Shown: piece by piece, positions 1 through 6,018 of the stretch | How positions within the stretch are numbered: the stretch's first letter is position 1 | Layout of the letters: every line of letters starts with the position of its first letter | Source: a virus | Lineage: Duplodnaviria; Heunggongvirae; Uroviricota; Caudoviricetes | Direction: 5' to 3' (one strand) | DNA length: 12,525 bases | Virus record (IMG/VR): IMGVR_UViG_2711768034_000010 | Position numbers and translations under genes: made by a program | The notes under the pieces: model-generated | The model's input: the letters and a program-made list of their open reading frames with translations, nothing else | What the model was told of the DNA's origin: nothing | Database searches by the model: none

Positions 1-282
1 CGCCAGTTCGCCCGGATGTTGGGACTTGAACCGAAGAACACGGCGGTGCGGAGTCCGGAGAGTAACGGAATAGCAGAGAGCTTCGTGAAAACGATAAAGC
101 GTGACTACATCAGTATCATGCCCAAACCAGACGGGTTAACGGCAGCAAAGAACCTTGCAGAGGCGTTCGAGCATTATAACGAATGGCATCCGCATAGTGC
201 GCTGGGTTATCGCTCGCCACGGGAATATCTGCGGCAGCGGGCTTGTAATGGGTTAAGTGATAACAGATGTCTGGAAATATAG
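1..282 (+). CDS. insD: IS2 transposase OrfB (InsD-type, rve integrase-core) C-terminal part; 5' end lies outside the window
   Basis: Frame-1 ORF open from base 1 to the TAG at 280-282. Translation ...[20 protein letters not shown]...[29 protein letters not shown] matches my memory of the IS2 InsD C-terminus. Confidence 0.75.
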
Positions 283-293
283 GGGCAAATCCA
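1..293 (+). mobile_element. IS2 (IS3 family) right end, partial; the element continues beyond the left window edge
   Basis: Transposase C-terminus is followed by GGGTTAAGTGATAACAGATGTCTGGAAATATAGGGGCAAATCCA ending at 293, which I recognise from memory as the IS2 right terminal inverted repeat. Not verified by alignment. Confidence 0.75.
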
Positions 294-743: not shown

Positions 744-956
744 TCAAGTCGCCGGGAGGTACTTGTAGATTGTTTTCACGTCCACGCCTGTCACATCAGC
801 CACCTGCTGCCGGGTAGCGCCGTTCTCCAGCATTCTGCGGCACCGCTCCACCACTTCTTCAGTCATTATCCGGCGGCGGCCGCCGACTCTCTCCTGCTCC
901 ATCGCTGCGGACCGACTCGGATGCATTCGGCAAATTCTAGGCCGTGATTTTTCCAA
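744..956 (-). pseudogene. Serine recombinase (Hin/Gin/Pin-type) C-terminal HTH remnant; catalytic domain absent
   Basis: C-terminal 45 aa GGRRRIMTEEVVERCRRMLENGATRQQVADVTGVDVKTIYKYLPAT resemble the C-terminal HTH of DNA invertases (compare Gin ...GGRPRAINKHEQEQISRLLEKGHPRQQLAIIFGIGVSTLYRYFPAS). The ORF starts with TTG; an internal ATG at 902 would give 52 aa. No upstream resolvase catalytic domain in frame. Overlaps the 3' end of the 266-aa gene. Confidence 0.35.
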
Positions 957-1737
957 TCCTCTCCATCAGATATGCCAGGATGACATCCAGTGTGCTGGTC
1001 CCATATGCATATTTGCCGGGGAAAACCAAACATTCTGACAAAACGGATGTTAACGGAGACACTGAACCATTGCCTGCTCCGCCAATACTCATTTTTTGAG
1101 ACGGGCTATACGCTGGGATTGTATAGCCCGTCACTTGTCGGCTGGTCACTGCAGACTGATCTGACCGCTGGTATGCAATTGCATAGGATCCAGCAGCCTT
1201 GTTAGAGCACATAACTACAGCGCAGAATAAAGATTGCCCTATATTGTTAGGAGTAAATGCCAGATCGGCCTCGATCCCTCCATTCAGAAAAATCGGGAAT
1301 GAACCTGCTGACGTTGTACGAATGCCGACGCCATGAGGTGTGCTTTCCTGGGTTGCGATAACCGCTCTGTCCTGTGGCGTAGCCGGAAGCGCCCCACCTG
1401 GCAGCTGATAGATGAATGCAAAAGTATTGATGTTTGCGTCCATAACCACCGCCGTATCACCAGCCATGCCGGATGCACCGGAGAAATTAAGCCCCTGCAA
1501 AACAGAACCATTCAGCTTTGTGGATGGCTCGAGGGTCTCCAGTGACTTGAAAAGTCCGCCATCTAATCGGTTAGAGATAGCTACTACTTTTGCACCAGAC
1601 CCCATTTTTAGAAACTCTGTCTTCACTGGTGTCCATACTGATGGGGATAGTTCTGAGATCGCTTTCTCTGCCGCTGTTTGTGAGTACACAGGGAGTAAGG
1701 GGTTATTCAGTCCAGTTAGTGTGTAAATCAGTCTCAT
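937..1737 (-). CDS. Hypothetical protein (266 aa) translationally coupled downstream of the tail-type esterase gene; possibly tail-fibre associated
   Basis: ATG at 1737 lies 9 nt after the upstream stop, with GAGGA overlapping that stop (minus strand TGAGGATAAAAAATG). Long ORF with no antisense alternative of similar length. No family recognised. Confidence 0.55.
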   Translation of the reverse strand: MRLIYTLTGLNNPLLPVYSQTAAEKAISELSPSVWTPVKTEFLKMGSGAKVVAISNRLDGGLFKSLETLEPSTKLNGSVLQGLNFSGASGMAGDTAVVMDANINTFAFIYQLPGGALPATPQDRAVIATQESTPHGVGIRTTSAGSFPIFLNGGIEADLAFTPNNIGQSLFCAVVMCSNKAAGSYAIAYQRSDQSAVTSRQVTGYTIPAYSPSQKMSIGGAGNGSVSPLTSVLSECLVFPGKYAYGTSTLDVILAYLMERIGKITA

Positions 1738-1746
1738 TTTTTATCC

Positions 1747-3741
1747 TCAGAAAACGTTAATACGAAAAGCGGGGAGCCAGTCGTAAAGAGTCACGGATGT
1801 GTCATACACCCATATGATTCCAGCGGAAGATCGAACACACCCTCTTGCACCAAGAGTCCGCCCGGAAGGTTTTACAGATGCGCCGCTCTGAAGTGGGTTT
1901 TCTGCTGTCGCATAGGAAACGCGCCCAAAACGTCCAGAGGGGGCGGTCGCCAGGTTAATCAGCACGCCCTTGCCGTCCGAGCTGATCGCGATGCTCGATA
2001 TAGCAGGTGGAGCACCAGTCTCATCCGTGTAGCTAAAGCCGTAATTGGCCAGACCGGAGGTGTTGATCGTAGTCGTGTCCAGCACCAGGTTCGTATACGC
2101 TGGGACATTGATTTGTATCTGCGTGGGTGAGTTCCACACGAAACTGGTCGGAACCATCCCTGACCAGCCGCTCGTAAACCACTCCTGGAGAAGCGCTCTC
2201 GCCACAGCTGCTCCGCGCCGGTTCTGGCCCGCACACGTCAAGTGCAGACCGTCTGAAATAAAATCGTACTGGTACAAACTATTGACCAGCCTGAATTGCT
2301 CTTTTCCGTGCAATCGCGTCGACGCCAGTCGCGCGTACTGGCCTGTAAATGCACCATGCCCGTCATTGACATACCCCAGCTGGGTAATGGCGATAATCGG
2401 CGGTTCGTTTTGACCCGTTCTTGCGATGATGTCGCTGGTGATTTGTCTCTGGTACTGCCTCATCCGTGATTCATACATTCCTTCTCGTAATCCTGACCAG
2501 TCCTCGTCGGACTCTCCCTGCATCCAGTCAACGCAGAGAACAATCGGCAGCCAGCCGCGTGCTTTACAGGCCGTTACGCAGTCTTCGATTGAATCGAGCA
2601 GATACTGATATACCTGGTTACCCCGTTTCTGGTACTCGTAAGCCTGACCAGACTGCGCACATACGATTGATAGCGTGCGCGGCATGATTCCGGTAGCTGC
2701 AGCCATATCGCGAATGAAGGTGTTCGCGAGGCCGCTTGCGGCCGTTTCTTTATCTGTCCCACTTACTGCCTCAACCAGTGGCACCAGAGTAGTGCTGCGT
2801 GTCCCTGTACGCCTAACCCCGCCGCTGAGCATGAAAGCGTTATCAGGATATATCGGCGTTGCTGCGACAATGGTTTGATCGGCGTCAGGACAATATCCTC
2901 GAGCGTTGGATTGCCCAGCAGTCACAAAGATAAAACATACAGGCACTGTCTCTGAGTAGGGGTACACAGTAGACCCTGACAAATGAAGTCCATACTCAGG
3001 GAGCTGGTTGGCATCATCGTCGCCACCACCACCGCCATTTCCGTTATTAACAGCTACCAGGCCACCGTCTGAGTAAATCCAGTGCTTCCCACCAACCGTA
3101 TAAGCTTCAACGATCTGGTTTGTGGTTGAATCAACCGTCATCCGCCACACTTTTTCACCGCCAATAAACTGCGGTATAGAACCCTCCCGGCCCAGCGCAT
3201 AGAGTTCGGATTCTTGTTGGGTTAAAAGTTCGTAATATTTTCCGTCAGGACCGATTTGAATTAATCTGCCGCTTGTATTTAAAAATGGAGCCACGCGGGA
3301 AGTCTCCGGATCATATGCTGCCAGGGTCACGCTGTCTGGCGATACCTGGTATGCGTAGTCGTCACGAACCATCCGCCGTCCGGTTGGCTGCAGCGTTCCA
3401 GCGAGGTTGATATACTCATCGGCCAGAGAGCTTCCGTCCTGACTGCGGACATAGGTTGTTGAACCTGCCGGAATATTCGCAATATCCGCCTGCGCCGCCG
3501 CCAGCGTCATGTACTGCCGGCTGAGAGGGATCAGGTTTTGGCGGGCTTCATCAATAACAGCGTCGGTAGCAGCTGCCATTTTTTTAGTAGCCCCAATTAT
3601 CGTATCCTGGGCGTTACCAAAACGATCTATAAAAGTATCGCTTTCGCTGTTCAGGAAATCATCGTACGCCAGGGCGTTATCATTCAGATCCTTCATGCTA
3701 TTTGAAGGTCTTGGATTGCCGGTATTATATCTTTTGTCCAT
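1747..3741 (-). CDS. Large tail-type protein with central SGNH/SASA-like esterase domain (putative O-acetyl esterase tailspike or tail fibre)
   Basis: Long minus-strand ORF. Motif FVTAGQSNARGY (GQSN block I of sialate-O-acetylesterase-type SGNH hydrolases) and, about 220 aa later, FISDGLHLT (DxxH block V). Start chosen at ATG 3741 (AGGA 7 nt upstream); in-frame alternatives at 3759 and 3810. Confidence 0.65.
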   Translation of the reverse strand: MDKRYNTGNPRPSNSMKDLNDNALAYDDFLNSESDTFIDRFGNAQDTIIGATKKMAAATDAVIDEARQNLIPLSRQYMTLAAAQADIANIPAGSTTYVRSQDGSSLADEYINLAGTLQPTGRRMVRDDYAYQVSPDSVTLAAYDPETSRVAPFLNTSGRLIQIGPDGKYYELLTQQESELYALGREGSIPQFIGGEKVWRMTVDSTTNQIVEAYTVGGKHWIYSDGGLVAVNNGNGGGGGDDDANQLPEYGLHLSGSTVYPYSETVPVCFIFVTAGQSNARGYCPDADQTIVAATPIYPDNAFMLSGGVRRTGTRSTTLVPLVEAVSGTDKETAASGLANTFIRDMAAATGIMPRTLSIVCAQSGQAYEYQKRGNQVYQYLLDSIEDCVTACKARGWLPIVLCVDWMQGESDEDWSGLREGMYESRMRQYQRQITSDIIARTGQNEPPIIAITQLGYVNDGHGAFTGQYARLASTRLHGKEQFRLVNSLYQYDFISDGLHLTCAGQNRRGAAVARALLQEWFTSGWSGMVPTSFVWNSPTQIQINVPAYTNLVLDTTTINTSGLANYGFSYTDETGAPPAISSIAISSDGKGVLINLATAPSGRFGRVSYATAENPLQSGASVKPSGRTLGARGCVRSSAGIIWVYDTSVTLYDWLPAFRINVF

Positions 3742-3781
3742 ACCTGTTCCTGTCTTCATCTTTTCAATGAAGCAATTAAGA

Positions 3782-3810
3782 TTGACGCCCCGCCCCTTCA
3801 GGGCTAACAT
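3782..3810 (+). promoter_or_regulatory. Candidate sigma70 promoter for the regulator/acyltransferase operon
   Basis: TTGACG (3782-3787), 17-nt spacer, TAACAT (3805-3810), about 33 nt upstream of the ATG at 3843. Hexamer match by eye only. Confidence 0.3.
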
Positions 3811-3842
3811 CGCCTTACGTGTTTAAACGGTTAAATAAGAGA

Positions 3843-4106
3843 ATGATTTTAATAAATAAATACACCCCTCCAACGCAGGAAGATTTAGCCAGACTGAAAT
3901 CCGCACTAAATTACTCCGGAAACCAAATGGCAGGGCTCGCAGGTGTAGCCAGCGATAGCCAATGGCGGAAATACACTGGCGGAGAGAGCCCCAGGGTAAT
4001 GTCAAGACACATACTGTTTTATATTGCAGCTCAGCTTGTTCTGTCTGATGAGCAACTTAACAATGTAATAAATAAAATGCGCGATATTGGCGCGGAGATA
4101 AAATAA
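3843..4106 (+). CDS. Small HTH (XRE/Cro-like) protein, 87 aa, translationally coupled to the acyltransferase
   Basis: ATG at 3843 within an ORF opening at GTG 3819. Segment GNQMAGLAGVASDSQWRKYTGGESPRVMSRHILFYIAAQL has an HTH-like pattern. Stop TAA (4104-4106) overlaps the next ATG (4106-4108). Confidence 0.55.
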   Translation: MILINKYTPPTQEDLARLKSALNYSGNQMAGLAGVASDSQWRKYTGGESPRVMSRHILFYIAAQLVLSDEQLNNVINKMRDIGAEIK

Positions 4107-5197
4107 TGCTTGGCCTAATAAGGTTTTTTTTGGCATCGTGCGTCATTGCTTTTCACTTAACGGCTCGCATACCTGCACTTGGCAACTTTGCAGTGAATTG
4201 CTTCTATGTTATTAGTGGTTTTTTAATAACATACATTTTGCATGAAACATACAAGTTCAACTTCTCTATGTTTTGGAAAAATAGAATACTGAGGTTATTC
4301 CCGGCATATATATTTTTTCTCGTCATGGGCTTTCTTATTATAAAATTAATTCCATCCGCAAAGGAATTCCACTCAAACTGGACAGGCAATTTCTTACCTG
4401 GAGATTTATTAGGAAACCTCTTAATCTTCCCCTGGGCTTTCCTTTCTGATAATGCTGTAGCAAATCCATTCGGTGCCTTTTCATCCATTTATCACTTTGC
4501 TATTGATGGTAATAGATTCAGAATAGTCACATCATCATGGTCAGTGGGTGTTGAGATAACATGTTATTTTTTATTGTGGCTTTTCATAGCCCGAAATAAA
4601 TTTACAGCCATTACGTCGATTCTGCTTTCACTGCTTTATCATGCTTACGTATATGTAGTACACCATTCTTTTGATATGGCGTATTTCCCATTCCTTGCTG
4701 CAACACTTCCTTTTAGCATGGGTTCTCTGGGTTATTTTGCCCATAGAAAGTTCAAAGCTATGTATCTTTCTCCACACAAAGCTTTTTTAATAACATTTAT
4801 TTGCATCGGGATTTTTATTACCAATTGGCATTTATATACAATTAATTCATTAGGTCAGTACAACATAATACTTTACTACACCAATAATGTAATAGCATTG
4901 TTTACAACCCTGGTATTATTAAAAATAAAGACAAACATACATCTTGAGAAAATACTCAAGTGGTTTGGTGACCTGGCCTATCCAATTTTTCTTTGTCAAT
5001 ATTTTGGTGGATTTCTAGCATGGCTTGCTATTGGTGGTGAAAATCGTGGCTTATCCATCTTTTTATTAGGCTACCCAATATCAATTGCACTTGGGATCGT
5101 TTGTGTAATATTAATAGACAAGCCACTAATTAAAATTAGAGCAAAAATAAGGGCGGACGCTCAAAGCAAAAATAATCAGGAAAACTCTTCAAGGTAA
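4106..5197 (+). CDS. Acyltransferase family 3 integral membrane protein (O-antigen/glycan O-acetyltransferase type, Oac/OafA-like)
   Basis: 363-aa strongly hydrophobic ORF with N-terminal signature FYVISGFLITY typical of acyltransferase_3 proteins. AT-rich relative to flanks (17/60 G+C hand-counted at 4801-4860). Confidence 0.85.
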   Translation: MLGLIRFFLASCVIAFHLTARIPALGNFAVNCFYVISGFLITYILHETYKFNFSMFWKNRILRLFPAYIFFLVMGFLIIKLIPSAKEFHSNWTGNFLPGDLLGNLLIFPWAFLSDNAVANPFGAFSSIYHFAIDGNRFRIVTSSWSVGVEITCYFLLWLFIARNKFTAITSILLSLLYHAYVYVVHHSFDMAYFPFLAATLPFSMGSLGYFAHRKFKAMYLSPHKAFLITFICIGIFITNWHLYTINSLGQYNIILYYTNNVIALFTTLVLLKIKTNIHLEKILKWFGDLAYPIFLCQYFGGFLAWLAIGGENRGLSIFLLGYPISIALGIVCVILIDKPLIKIRAKIRADAQSKNNQENSSR

Positions 5198-6018
5198 ACT
5201 AAACCATTCGCTCCTTTTCCTGATGAATAGTTACCATTCCCCCCGGCACCACCTGAGCCGGGGAAACCGCCATCATCGCCAGAACTACCGAAGTGGCCAT
5301 TGCCACCCGTTGATGAAAATGCAGATCCTCCAGCCCCGCCAATAAAAGCATCAGAACCATAATACAGACCACCTTGAGATATTCCGCCAGTAATATTTAA
5401 AATGTTCCCGCCACTTCCGATACCTCCAGCAGGAACTGTAGCCCCGCCACCACTCCCTCCAGTAGCTGAGATTAAACTCCCGAACCTTGTATCACCACCA
5501 TTCCCGCCTTTAGACGAGACACCAGCAGCAACAGCACTGCCACCAGTACCTATCGTCACAGATATAGTTTCGTTATCAGAAATATTAAATAACCCTTCCG
5601 AAAATCCACCAGCACAACCTCCAGATGCGCCCACACTAACTGGAGCATTCTGGCCACCTCCCCCCGCTCCCCAAACTTTCACCCGCACTCTTTTCGTCCC
5701 TTTAGTTGGAGTGTAAGTCCCTGACTTAGTAAAGGTGACAATATTAAGCAGGCGACCGCCACCAATCGCTTTAAGAACCTGTGAATCATCATCAGGATCA
5801 AGCTCAAGCCCCGCGCCCTCAACAACGTTTATGTGAACCTCGGCCAGATCTGAGGATGGCCGGGGAACGGCCCGCAGTTGCTCAATAATCGCCGCTCTCG
5901 CTGCCTGCTGGAACTTGCGCCCTGTCTCGCTTACCAGATGCCTGCCTTTCAGCGGTCCCTTGCTCGGGGCGCGCCAGTAACTATTTACGCTCGGTGGAAA
6001 TGGTAAAGTCAGTTTCAT
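5176..6018 (-). CDS. Chimeric ORF: RusA-like N-terminus (about 45 aa) fused to a glycine-rich C-terminal region
   Basis: N-terminus MKLTLPFPPSVNSYWR...GRHLVSETGRKFQQAARAAI parallels RusA (ITLPWPPSNNRYYR...RTHVSAEGQAYRDNVARII), but RusA's catalytic Asp cluster is not found. The remainder is Gly-rich (VKVWGAGGGGQ..., GGSGGG...). Good SD (GGGGG) 7 nt before ATG 6018. The 3' end overlaps the convergent acyltransferase by 22 nt. Confidence 0.5.
   Translation of the reverse strand: MKLTLPFPPSVNSYWRAPSKGPLKGRHLVSETGRKFQQAARAAIIEQLRAVPRPSSDLAEVHINVVEGAGLELDPDDDSQVLKAIGGGRLLNIVTFTKSGTYTPTKGTKRVRVKVWGAGGGGQNAPVSVGASGGCAGGFSEGLFNISDNETISVTIGTGGSAVAAGVSSKGGNGGDTRFGSLISATGGSGGGATVPAGGIGSGGNILNITGGISQGGLYYGSDAFIGGAGGSAFSSTGGNGHFGSSGDDGGFPGSGGAGGNGNYSSGKGANGLVYLEEFS

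Follow-up and report, generated by a model that had tools for sequence, protein, structure and literature searches.

The 12,525-nucleotide stretch of DNA described here (IMG/VR record IMGVR_UViG_2711768034_000010; hereafter the window) is a segment of Escherichia coli chromosome from the yodB-mtfA region, 99.9% identical to strains such as PCN061, and contains a decayed prophage at serU. The gene at 1747-3741 on its minus strand very probably codes for the distal receptor-binding protein of a myovirus, a temperate phage in which a lambda-like head is combined with a contractile tail of Mu/SfV type. This protein carries a predicted esterase tip, its gene lies beside an independent membrane acyltransferase gene, and decay of the prophage has left it stranded. 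The fibre consists of three exchangeable parts, an anchor, a beta-rich middle and an esterase plus beta-sandwich module, as follows (residues are numbered in the 664-aa form throughout):

1747..3741, minus strand: receptor-binding tail fibre/tailspike gene, 664 aa (open reading frame, PHROG 4201, Pfam SASA, RefSeq, substitution rates)
3370..3741, minus strand: N-terminal virion-anchor module, aa 1-124 (shared N-termini, Sf11 gp13 match, DNA breakpoint)
2995..3369, minus strand: middle beta-rich stretch, aa 125-249, with a Gly/Asp-rich linker at its end, aa ~232-243 (homologue identity, low-confidence model)
1750..2994, minus strand: C-terminal 415-aa module, predicted SASA-type O-acetylesterase (aa ~265-520) and beta-sandwich (aa ~525-664) (profiles, Foldseek, invariant residues)

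The window contains an open reading frame of 687 aa (1747..3810, minus strand), and an earlier note on this DNA, made from its letters alone, had given the protein a length of 664-687 aa. The frame is confirmed and we prefer the shorter form: the ATG at 3810 was dropped as a start in favour of the ATG at 3741, which has AGGA 6 nt upstream, coincides with the start of the RefSeq entry for 1747..3741 (WP_001565623.1, 'sialate O-acetylesterase') and gives MDKRYNTGNP, the opening residues of all eight paralogous fibres. PHROG 4201 ('tail fiber protein') matches the product over its full length (E 1.3e-66), and the ratio of nonsynonymous to synonymous substitution rates (dN/dS) against phage homologues is 0.05-0.17, indicating that the gene is under purifying selection. 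Scans of the protein find no signal peptide and no hydrophobic segment. The closest homologues (84-93% identity) are prophage proteins of Klebsiella pneumoniae.

The sequence motifs of an SGNH/SASA esterase are all present in the C-terminal module. GQSN (block I) lies within FVTAGQSNARGY at aa 276-279 (nt 2905-2916); a QGE block equivalent to block III occupies aa 408-410 within WMQGESD (aa 406-412), which aligns with WYQGESD of the plant SASA esterase 2apj; and DGLH is at aa 497-500 (nt 2242-2253). Ser278 (codon 2908-2910) and His500 (codon 2242-2244) are 222 aa apart, 275 residues precede GQSN (298 in the 687-aa form) and 164 follow DGLH, close to the approximate 220, 290 and 170 aa reported before. 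Pfam SASA (PF03629) matches the fibre across profile positions 4-226 of 226 with 44.6 bits (E 1.8e-11), above its gathering cut-off of 24.8, and the earlier assignment of a complete core is therefore upheld.

Conservation was assessed by aligning the C-terminal 415 residues with 133 distant relatives (25-55% identity), identified by exhaustively searching 1.84 billion representatives, among which the module is matched as a single stretch in 1271 representative clusters at E<=1e-3. Ser278, the putative nucleophile, is present in 130 of 130 non-gap rows and His500, the putative base, in all 134 rows; Gly276 and Gln277 of block I are kept in 95-96%, Glu410 in 93% and Gly409 in 87%. The assignment had been left to depend on whether the catalytic Ser and His are conserved in homologues; both are invariant among the 133 relatives, and the esterase reading therefore stands. 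We conclude that the SASA/SGNH core is real and that the product of 1747-3741 is a predicted acetyl-esterase.

Comparison of the module profile with PDB shows matches to 2apj (E 1.2e-10) and to the tailspike of cyanopodophage Pan3 (PDB 9vyh, E 3.5e-36), a structure with three chains of the Pan3 tailspike sequence; a homologue of the module is in this way seen as a component of a virion. An AlphaFold2 model of the fibre has alternating beta/alpha elements over aa 268-522 with a mean predicted local distance difference test (pLDDT) score of only 61, and a Foldseek search with it finds 9vyh, 7kmm (a Xanthomonas acetylesterase), 2apj and 1zmb, the last three with E-values of 2e-8 to 1e-5 from this low-confidence model. 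A profile search made to deepen the fibre alignment mostly brought back the same close Klebsiella sequences.

Hundreds of phage proteins carry the module at their C-terminus. It ends no more than 15 residues from the C-terminus in 122 of the 133 relatives, and the N-terminal extensions that precede it range from 1 to 1230 residues. At 82-90% identity the same module occurs behind other N-termini, including those of an 840-aa protein of AV124 (a virulent member of the Vequintavirinae) and of 780-aa and 840-aa (Tail_spike_N) prophage proteins. Nucleotide comparison of the window with a K. pneumoniae contig (GCA_047965025.1) shows 98-100% identity across 440-2990, a segment spanning the esterase module, the partner gene described below and downstream DNA, and a recombination breakpoint beyond 2990 (aa ~250), where identity falls to 70-78%. 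We take the near-identity between E. coli and K. pneumoniae to reflect a very recent exchange of the cassette between genera. The middle stretch (aa 125-249) is 79-83% identical to its Klebsiella and AV124 homologues, and its beta structure is a low-confidence feature of the AlphaFold2 model.

At least seven further tail fibres, with unrelated remainders, share residues 1 to ~125 at 87-93% identity, and in fibres such as those of E. coli EC20, W21, 22F46 and 20KM2222 the similarity covers the first ~125-130 aa. Fibre residues 7-54 also match residues 6-53 of the phage Sf11 tail protein gp13 (E 0.0037), the N-terminus of which is ordered in the solved tail structure 9occ and is likewise recovered by Foldseek. 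It is this sharing of N-termini among unrelated fibres, together with the gp13 match, that identifies aa 1 to ~125 as the anchor. At the DNA level the breakpoint with E. coli relatives lies at ~3370-3377 (aa ~124), and the relatives match only from ~3370 through the acyltransferase gene to 5831. In the fuller relatives EC20, W21 and 20KM2222, and in HS, the fibre gene follows those for gp46, baseplate J, YmfQ and a glycine-rich tail protein, and in Klebsiella phage ST16-OXA48phi5.2 it follows baseplate J and a DUF2612 gene. The description of the protein as tail-type is thus borne out by the PHROG assignment, the anchor, the match to the Pan3 tailspike and the position of the gene at the baseplate end.

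The RefSeq name raises the question of whether the gene instead encodes a sialate O-acetylesterase of the NanS-p type, released at induction to deacetylate mucin Neu5,9Ac2 and feed the bacterium, as in the Stx prophages of enterohaemorrhagic E. coli. Pfam SASA is common to both proteins and the NanS-p of phage 933W scores on it. However, 933W p42 has DUF1737 (E 4.3e-18) and DUF6645 (E 1.4e-74) on either side of SASA, both of which are absent from the window protein; profile comparison aligns the QGE block only, with a probability of 16%; and a tblastn search of 50,697 phage records, 933W (NC_000924) included, gives no match on 933W. The same search matches among Escherichia records only AV124 and two siphophages, the latter over the anchor alone. 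The window gene is at a tail-fibre position rather than between stx and the lysis genes, as in 933W (stx2), and its product carries a tail-fibre anchor; of the two architectures that the earlier note had proposed to compare, the anchor is present and the NanS-p flanking domains are missing. We consider a NanS-p function very improbable, and the RefSeq name reflects that of the Pfam domain only.

The predicted esterase is accompanied by a second gene, beginning 9 nt past its stop codon:

937..1737, minus strand: partner gene of the esterase cassette, 266 aa

A homologue with 72-73% identity lies directly 3' of the esterase gene in both ST16-OXA48phi5.2 and AV124, and further K. pneumoniae and E. 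coli contigs have the 266-aa gene directly downstream of the esterase. The family is narrow, with 22 clusters of which the full-length ones are at least 68% identical, and a dN/dS of ~0.1-0.2 indicates purifying selection. Profile searches of Pfam, PHROG, NCBIfam and PDB give no match to the partner, and an AlphaFold2 model built with 16 close homologues has a mean pLDDT of 29. Each of the alternative tip cassettes (see below) is followed by an unrelated gene of its own, 250-460 aa long; hhalign finds no relation between the partner and the equivalent genes of two other cassettes, and the one in 23CRST046 matches Laminin_G_3 (ConA-like lectin) weakly (E 7.5e-5, below the gathering score). The esterase and the 266-aa protein move horizontally as a two-gene cassette, of which the partner is an obligate component. 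Most likely it acts as a cassette-specific assembly factor or accessory subunit, and the cassette-specific downstream genes of 250-460 aa may represent a new class of fibre accessory subunits.

On the other side of the fibre gene there are two genes on the plus strand:

3843..4106, plus strand: helix-turn-helix-like open reading frame, 87 aa, heading the acyltransferase operon (PHROG 20491, E 3.3e-30)
4106..5197, plus strand: Acyl_transf_3 (AT3) membrane O-acyltransferase (Pfam PF01757; PHROG 3333, 'O-acetyltransferase')

The acyltransferase-3 assignment made previously is confirmed by PF01757, which scores 57.2 bits (cut-off 31) over profile positions 6-323 of 326, and by a multi-pass membrane topology; the gene has a GC content of 35% and the product has at least nine hydrophobic 19-mer segments, His17 and an RxxR motif. 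It had also been called the immediate neighbour of the fibre gene on the opposite strand. The strand is correct but the adjacency is not, since the 87-aa helix-turn-helix-like frame, annotated 'transcriptional regulator' in W21, lies between the two with its end abutting the acyltransferase start. The GC content of this two-gene unit is 35-43%, versus ~50% for the neighbouring genes, and it is flanked, in antisense orientation, by the genes for the glycine-rich tail protein and the fibre, the 3' end of the acyltransferase overlapping the upstream tail gene (5176-6018) by 22 nt. With this arrangement, transcription of the late genes toward the fibre would in an intact phage run antisense through the unit, which suggests that expression of the two is mutually exclusive, one in lysogeny and the other in lytic growth. 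Scans for promoters and terminators around the divergent region find sites no more frequently than expected by chance.

Of 5426 complete E. coli genomes, 32 have the acyltransferase gene, invariably at this position and with 358-362 of 363 residues identical; a close copy of the anchor occurs in exactly these 32. The collection of 50,697 phage records contains no close homologue of it, the best being 28.6% identical and from a Vibrio phage. The helix-turn-helix and acyltransferase operon is a separate lysogenic-conversion moron fixed in the phage backbone. The fibres that accompany it, by contrast with this uniformity, have eight different tips behind the one anchor; three are of SASA-module type and two of GDSL type, and the others are a beta-helix, a protein with a CotH domain and a tip of unknown type:

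window/PCN061 type and HS, 16 genomes: SASA module, window type
20KM2222, 1 genome: distant member of the SASA-module family (hhalign E 7e-31)
23CRST046, 1 genome: distant member of the SASA-module family (hhalign E 3.8e-20)
EC20 group, 5 genomes: GDSL_2 type 1
Ec1117 group, 3 genomes: GDSL_2 type 2
W21 and LR881940, 2 genomes: right-handed beta-helix
ES2, 1 genome: CotH-domain
22F46 group, 3 genomes: unknown, annotated 'TolB-like'

The 22F46 fibre (locus 3812-5923, 'TolB family protein') was considered as a further esterase, having GQSL (aa 209) and DGLH (aa 664), and was rejected as profile comparison shows it to be unrelated to the SASA module; the two strings are probably chance matches.

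The earlier note had proposed that the esterase and the acyltransferase are a receptor-editing pair. In this scheme the acyltransferase O-acetylates the glycan that the fibre esterase deacetylates, such that lysogens would carry a mark or be protected and the fibre of the phage itself could read or remove that mark. The genes are divergent neighbours ~100 bp apart (counted from the small open reading frame), every fibre with a close anchor adjoins the acyltransferase (32 of 32 among the complete E. coli genomes), and five of the eight tips, in 26 of the 32 genomes, are esterase types. However, a one-to-one match of substrates does not predict the combination of one near-identical acyltransferase with five dissimilar esterases and three non-esterase tips, and a single acceptor specificity is unlikely to supply all five esterases. 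The cassette is moreover 98-100% identical in K. pneumoniae. Without an adjacent acyltransferase the esterase and its partner are found in the virulent coliphage AV124, in further prophages of E. coli and Klebsiella, and in the complete temperate Klebsiella phage ST16-OXA48phi5.2, in whose record no acyltransferase is annotated at all. The GDSL cassette of Ec1117 type likewise accompanies the acyltransferase in Ec1117 but lacks it in CFS3246, which has the identical partner protein, WP_053287103.1, in a different backbone. Since one acyltransferase goes with eight tips and the cassette exists without it, the modules assort independently and the pairing is not supported.

Two further considerations bear on this. 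A K. pneumoniae prophage survey (PLoS Biol 2026, PMC13123978) gives esterase tips as the commonest enzymatic type of receptor-binding protein in temperate Klebsiella phages, with SGNH one of the enzymatic domains encountered most often, so that the base rate of esterase tips is high. According to the same survey phage G7C needs the acetyl group for infection, from which it follows that acetylation would make, rather than remove, the target of an esterase fibre. On balance we regard a writer and eraser pair as unlikely. We are equally doubtful of a looser version, in which the fixed acyltransferase and the swappable esterase tips act on one glycan, acetylation blocking other phages and relatives with esterase tips still reading or removing the mark and so infecting the converted hosts.

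The remainder of the window accounts for the present state of the fibre gene. The principal features are:

12399..12488, minus strand: tRNA-Ser(CGA), the prophage attachment site serU (ARAGORN, Rfam, yodB ... mtfA context)
11309..12286, plus strand: integrase, beside the tRNA-Ser gene
5176..6018, minus strand: deletion scar, the N-terminus of RusA (nt ~5832-6018) joined to ~218 C-terminal residues of the glycine-rich tail protein, itself 261 aa long (PHROG, Pfam)

The early genes are kept, including those for the integrase, a ParB-like protein, a RacR-like repressor, a Cro-like protein, YmfL and a Dam methylase. In the scar frame PHROG 34 (RusA) matches at aa 1-63 and both PHROG 863 and Pfam Gly_rich_2 at aa 81-280, and homology to intact relatives stops at 5831; the fusion shows that rusA and all that followed it, the lysis, head and tail genes included, were lost in a single deletion. 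What the prophage looked like before is seen in the fuller relatives EC20, W21 and 20KM2222: their lambda-like head genes encode terminase, portal, S49 protease, decoration and capsid proteins, and those of the contractile, Mu/SfV-like tail encode sheath, tube, DNA-circularisation protein, gp46, baseplate J, YmfQ and the glycine-rich protein. E. coli HS (NC_009800.1, 2062552-2082159) has the same serU prophage with an independent deletion that leaves terminase to protease and the baseplate genes, its early genes and part of the integrase being gone. Acyltransferase, esterase fibre and partner have survived in both derivatives, the window/PCN061 type and HS.

The distal end of the prophage adjoins an IS3-family transposase gene, of which the 3' end (rve_3 domain) occupies window 1-292; homology to other E. 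coli genomes begins at 293, the left prophage end having been cut by the IS3 fragment, and an alignment and repeat search of the window finds no convincing repeat for the left attachment site. We also note a 41-nt direct repeat (7673-7713 and 9612-9652, 73% identical) with the palindromic core ATTAGGCTAAGCCTAAT, bracketing two genes, that for the RacR-like repressor (7741-8217) and one of low GC content (36-40%) annotated 'type I restriction endonuclease' (8373-9542); the repeats could serve as operators or delimit a further inserted module.

Several observations weigh against the assignment of the gene to a receptor-binding esterase fibre. Asp497, the possible triad Asp, is found in only 65% of the relatives, and the mechanism may thus be that of a Ser-His dyad and not a triad. 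The AlphaFold2 model is poor over the whole fibre (mean pLDDT 61), which leaves the evidence for the fold resting mainly on sequence profiles. Finally, with the head and tail genes lost the fibre could not be mounted on a virion in the window: it is not assemblable there, and any present-day function would be a different one or none.

This last point invites the explanation that the esterase and partner are relics exapted to serve the host, for example by remodelling its own acetylated capsule or lipopolysaccharide after leakage or lysis. Two independent deletion derivatives have kept the acyltransferase-esterase-partner end, and 16 genomes share the open reading frames intact and with 100% identity. 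The locus, however, looks recent or clonal, so that this identity is uninformative as to selection, and retention is equally explained by chance or by linkage to the acyltransferase, which is probably the conversion gene under selection. Furthermore the protein has no export signal, and the late promoter and operon context have been lost. Exaptation thus seems to us improbable, and most simply the fibre and partner are relics linked to the acyltransferase, itself a plausible selected conversion gene.

For the receptor-binding fibre that we favour, a mode of action can be proposed by analogy. The anchor (aa 1-124) would dock the fibre, probably a trimer as in 9vyh, on the baseplate of the intact ancestral virion, and the head formed by the esterase and beta-sandwich would bind an O-acetylated surface polysaccharide, either capsule or O-antigen. 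Ser278 is predicted to attack the acetyl ester with His500 as base, assisted by Glu410 and Asp497. By deacetylating the glycan layer without cleaving its chains, the phage would be able to recognise it and advance through it. The near-identical cassette in two genera points to an acetylated glycan receptor that is probably shared by them; that it is a Klebsiella-type capsule or a common O-antigen is speculative.

The name 'sialate O-acetylesterase' is misleading in that it directs attention to sialic-acid metabolism, while the protein is a phage receptor-binding enzyme. Its cassette extends to E. coli the esterase-tip strategy of Klebsiella prophages, and the eight tips on one anchor beside one acetyltransferase provide a natural experiment for the specificity of tips for glycans and for the interplay of AT3 proteins and esterases.

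Similar enzymes are known from several phages. The Klebsiella survey (PMC13123978) reports two esterase fibres active on p-nitrophenyl acetate, among them 164_08, a SASA (PF03629) fibre and KL2 predictor; PMC12115436 describes SASA-like tailspike esterases of Acinetobacter and Klebsiella prophages, and PMC8471582 the esterase-tipped fibre of Acinetobacter phage Aristophanes. The window fibre resembles 164_08 in being a temperate-phage fibre with a C-terminal SASA-type esterase and in the anchor segment 'RQNLIPLS(K/R)QY..LA.AQADIANIPAGSTTYVRS...GTLQPTGR', which is common to both, but in 164_08 the esterase domain is of a different SASA subfamily (ITDGQSLSNG...). Unlike the fibres of that survey, the window copy is in E. 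coli and in a defective prophage; a comparison made to place the window esterase cluster at a K-locus finds no peptide match to it in the supplementary tables of the survey.

Phage G7C gp63.1, as described in PMC13123978, is similarly a virion SGNH-type esterase that deacetylates a surface polysaccharide at the adsorption step while leaving it uncleaved. However, it is not among the top 50 Foldseek matches of the low-confidence fibre model, and G7C is a virulent N4-like podovirus in which gp63.1 carries a second tailspike as a branch. The Pan3 tailspike (9vyh) shares the arrangement of a SASA esterase and beta-sandwich at the C-terminus (residues 313-742 of 745), but with 14-16% identity in the Foldseek alignment, and it has a cyanobacterial host, a podoviral virion and another N-terminus. 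NanS-p (933W p42) is also a prophage-encoded Pfam SASA protein, but one with DUF1737 and DUF6645 flanks encoded downstream of stx, whereas the window protein has an anchor and another C-terminal domain and is encoded after baseplate genes. The acyltransferase (4106-5197) is like the Sf6 Oac type in being an AT3-only multi-pass protein of ~330-360 aa encoded by a low-GC temperate-phage moron, and differs in its antisense location within the tail-fibre block, rather than beside int/att, and in being preceded by its own helix-turn-helix-like frame. Esterase-tipped fibres have thus already been described, in G7C and in Klebsiella prophages, and the window fibre is a further example; what is added here is the corrected annotation, the three-part mosaic with its breakpoints, the 266-aa partner, and the series of one anchor and one acetyltransferase with eight tips.

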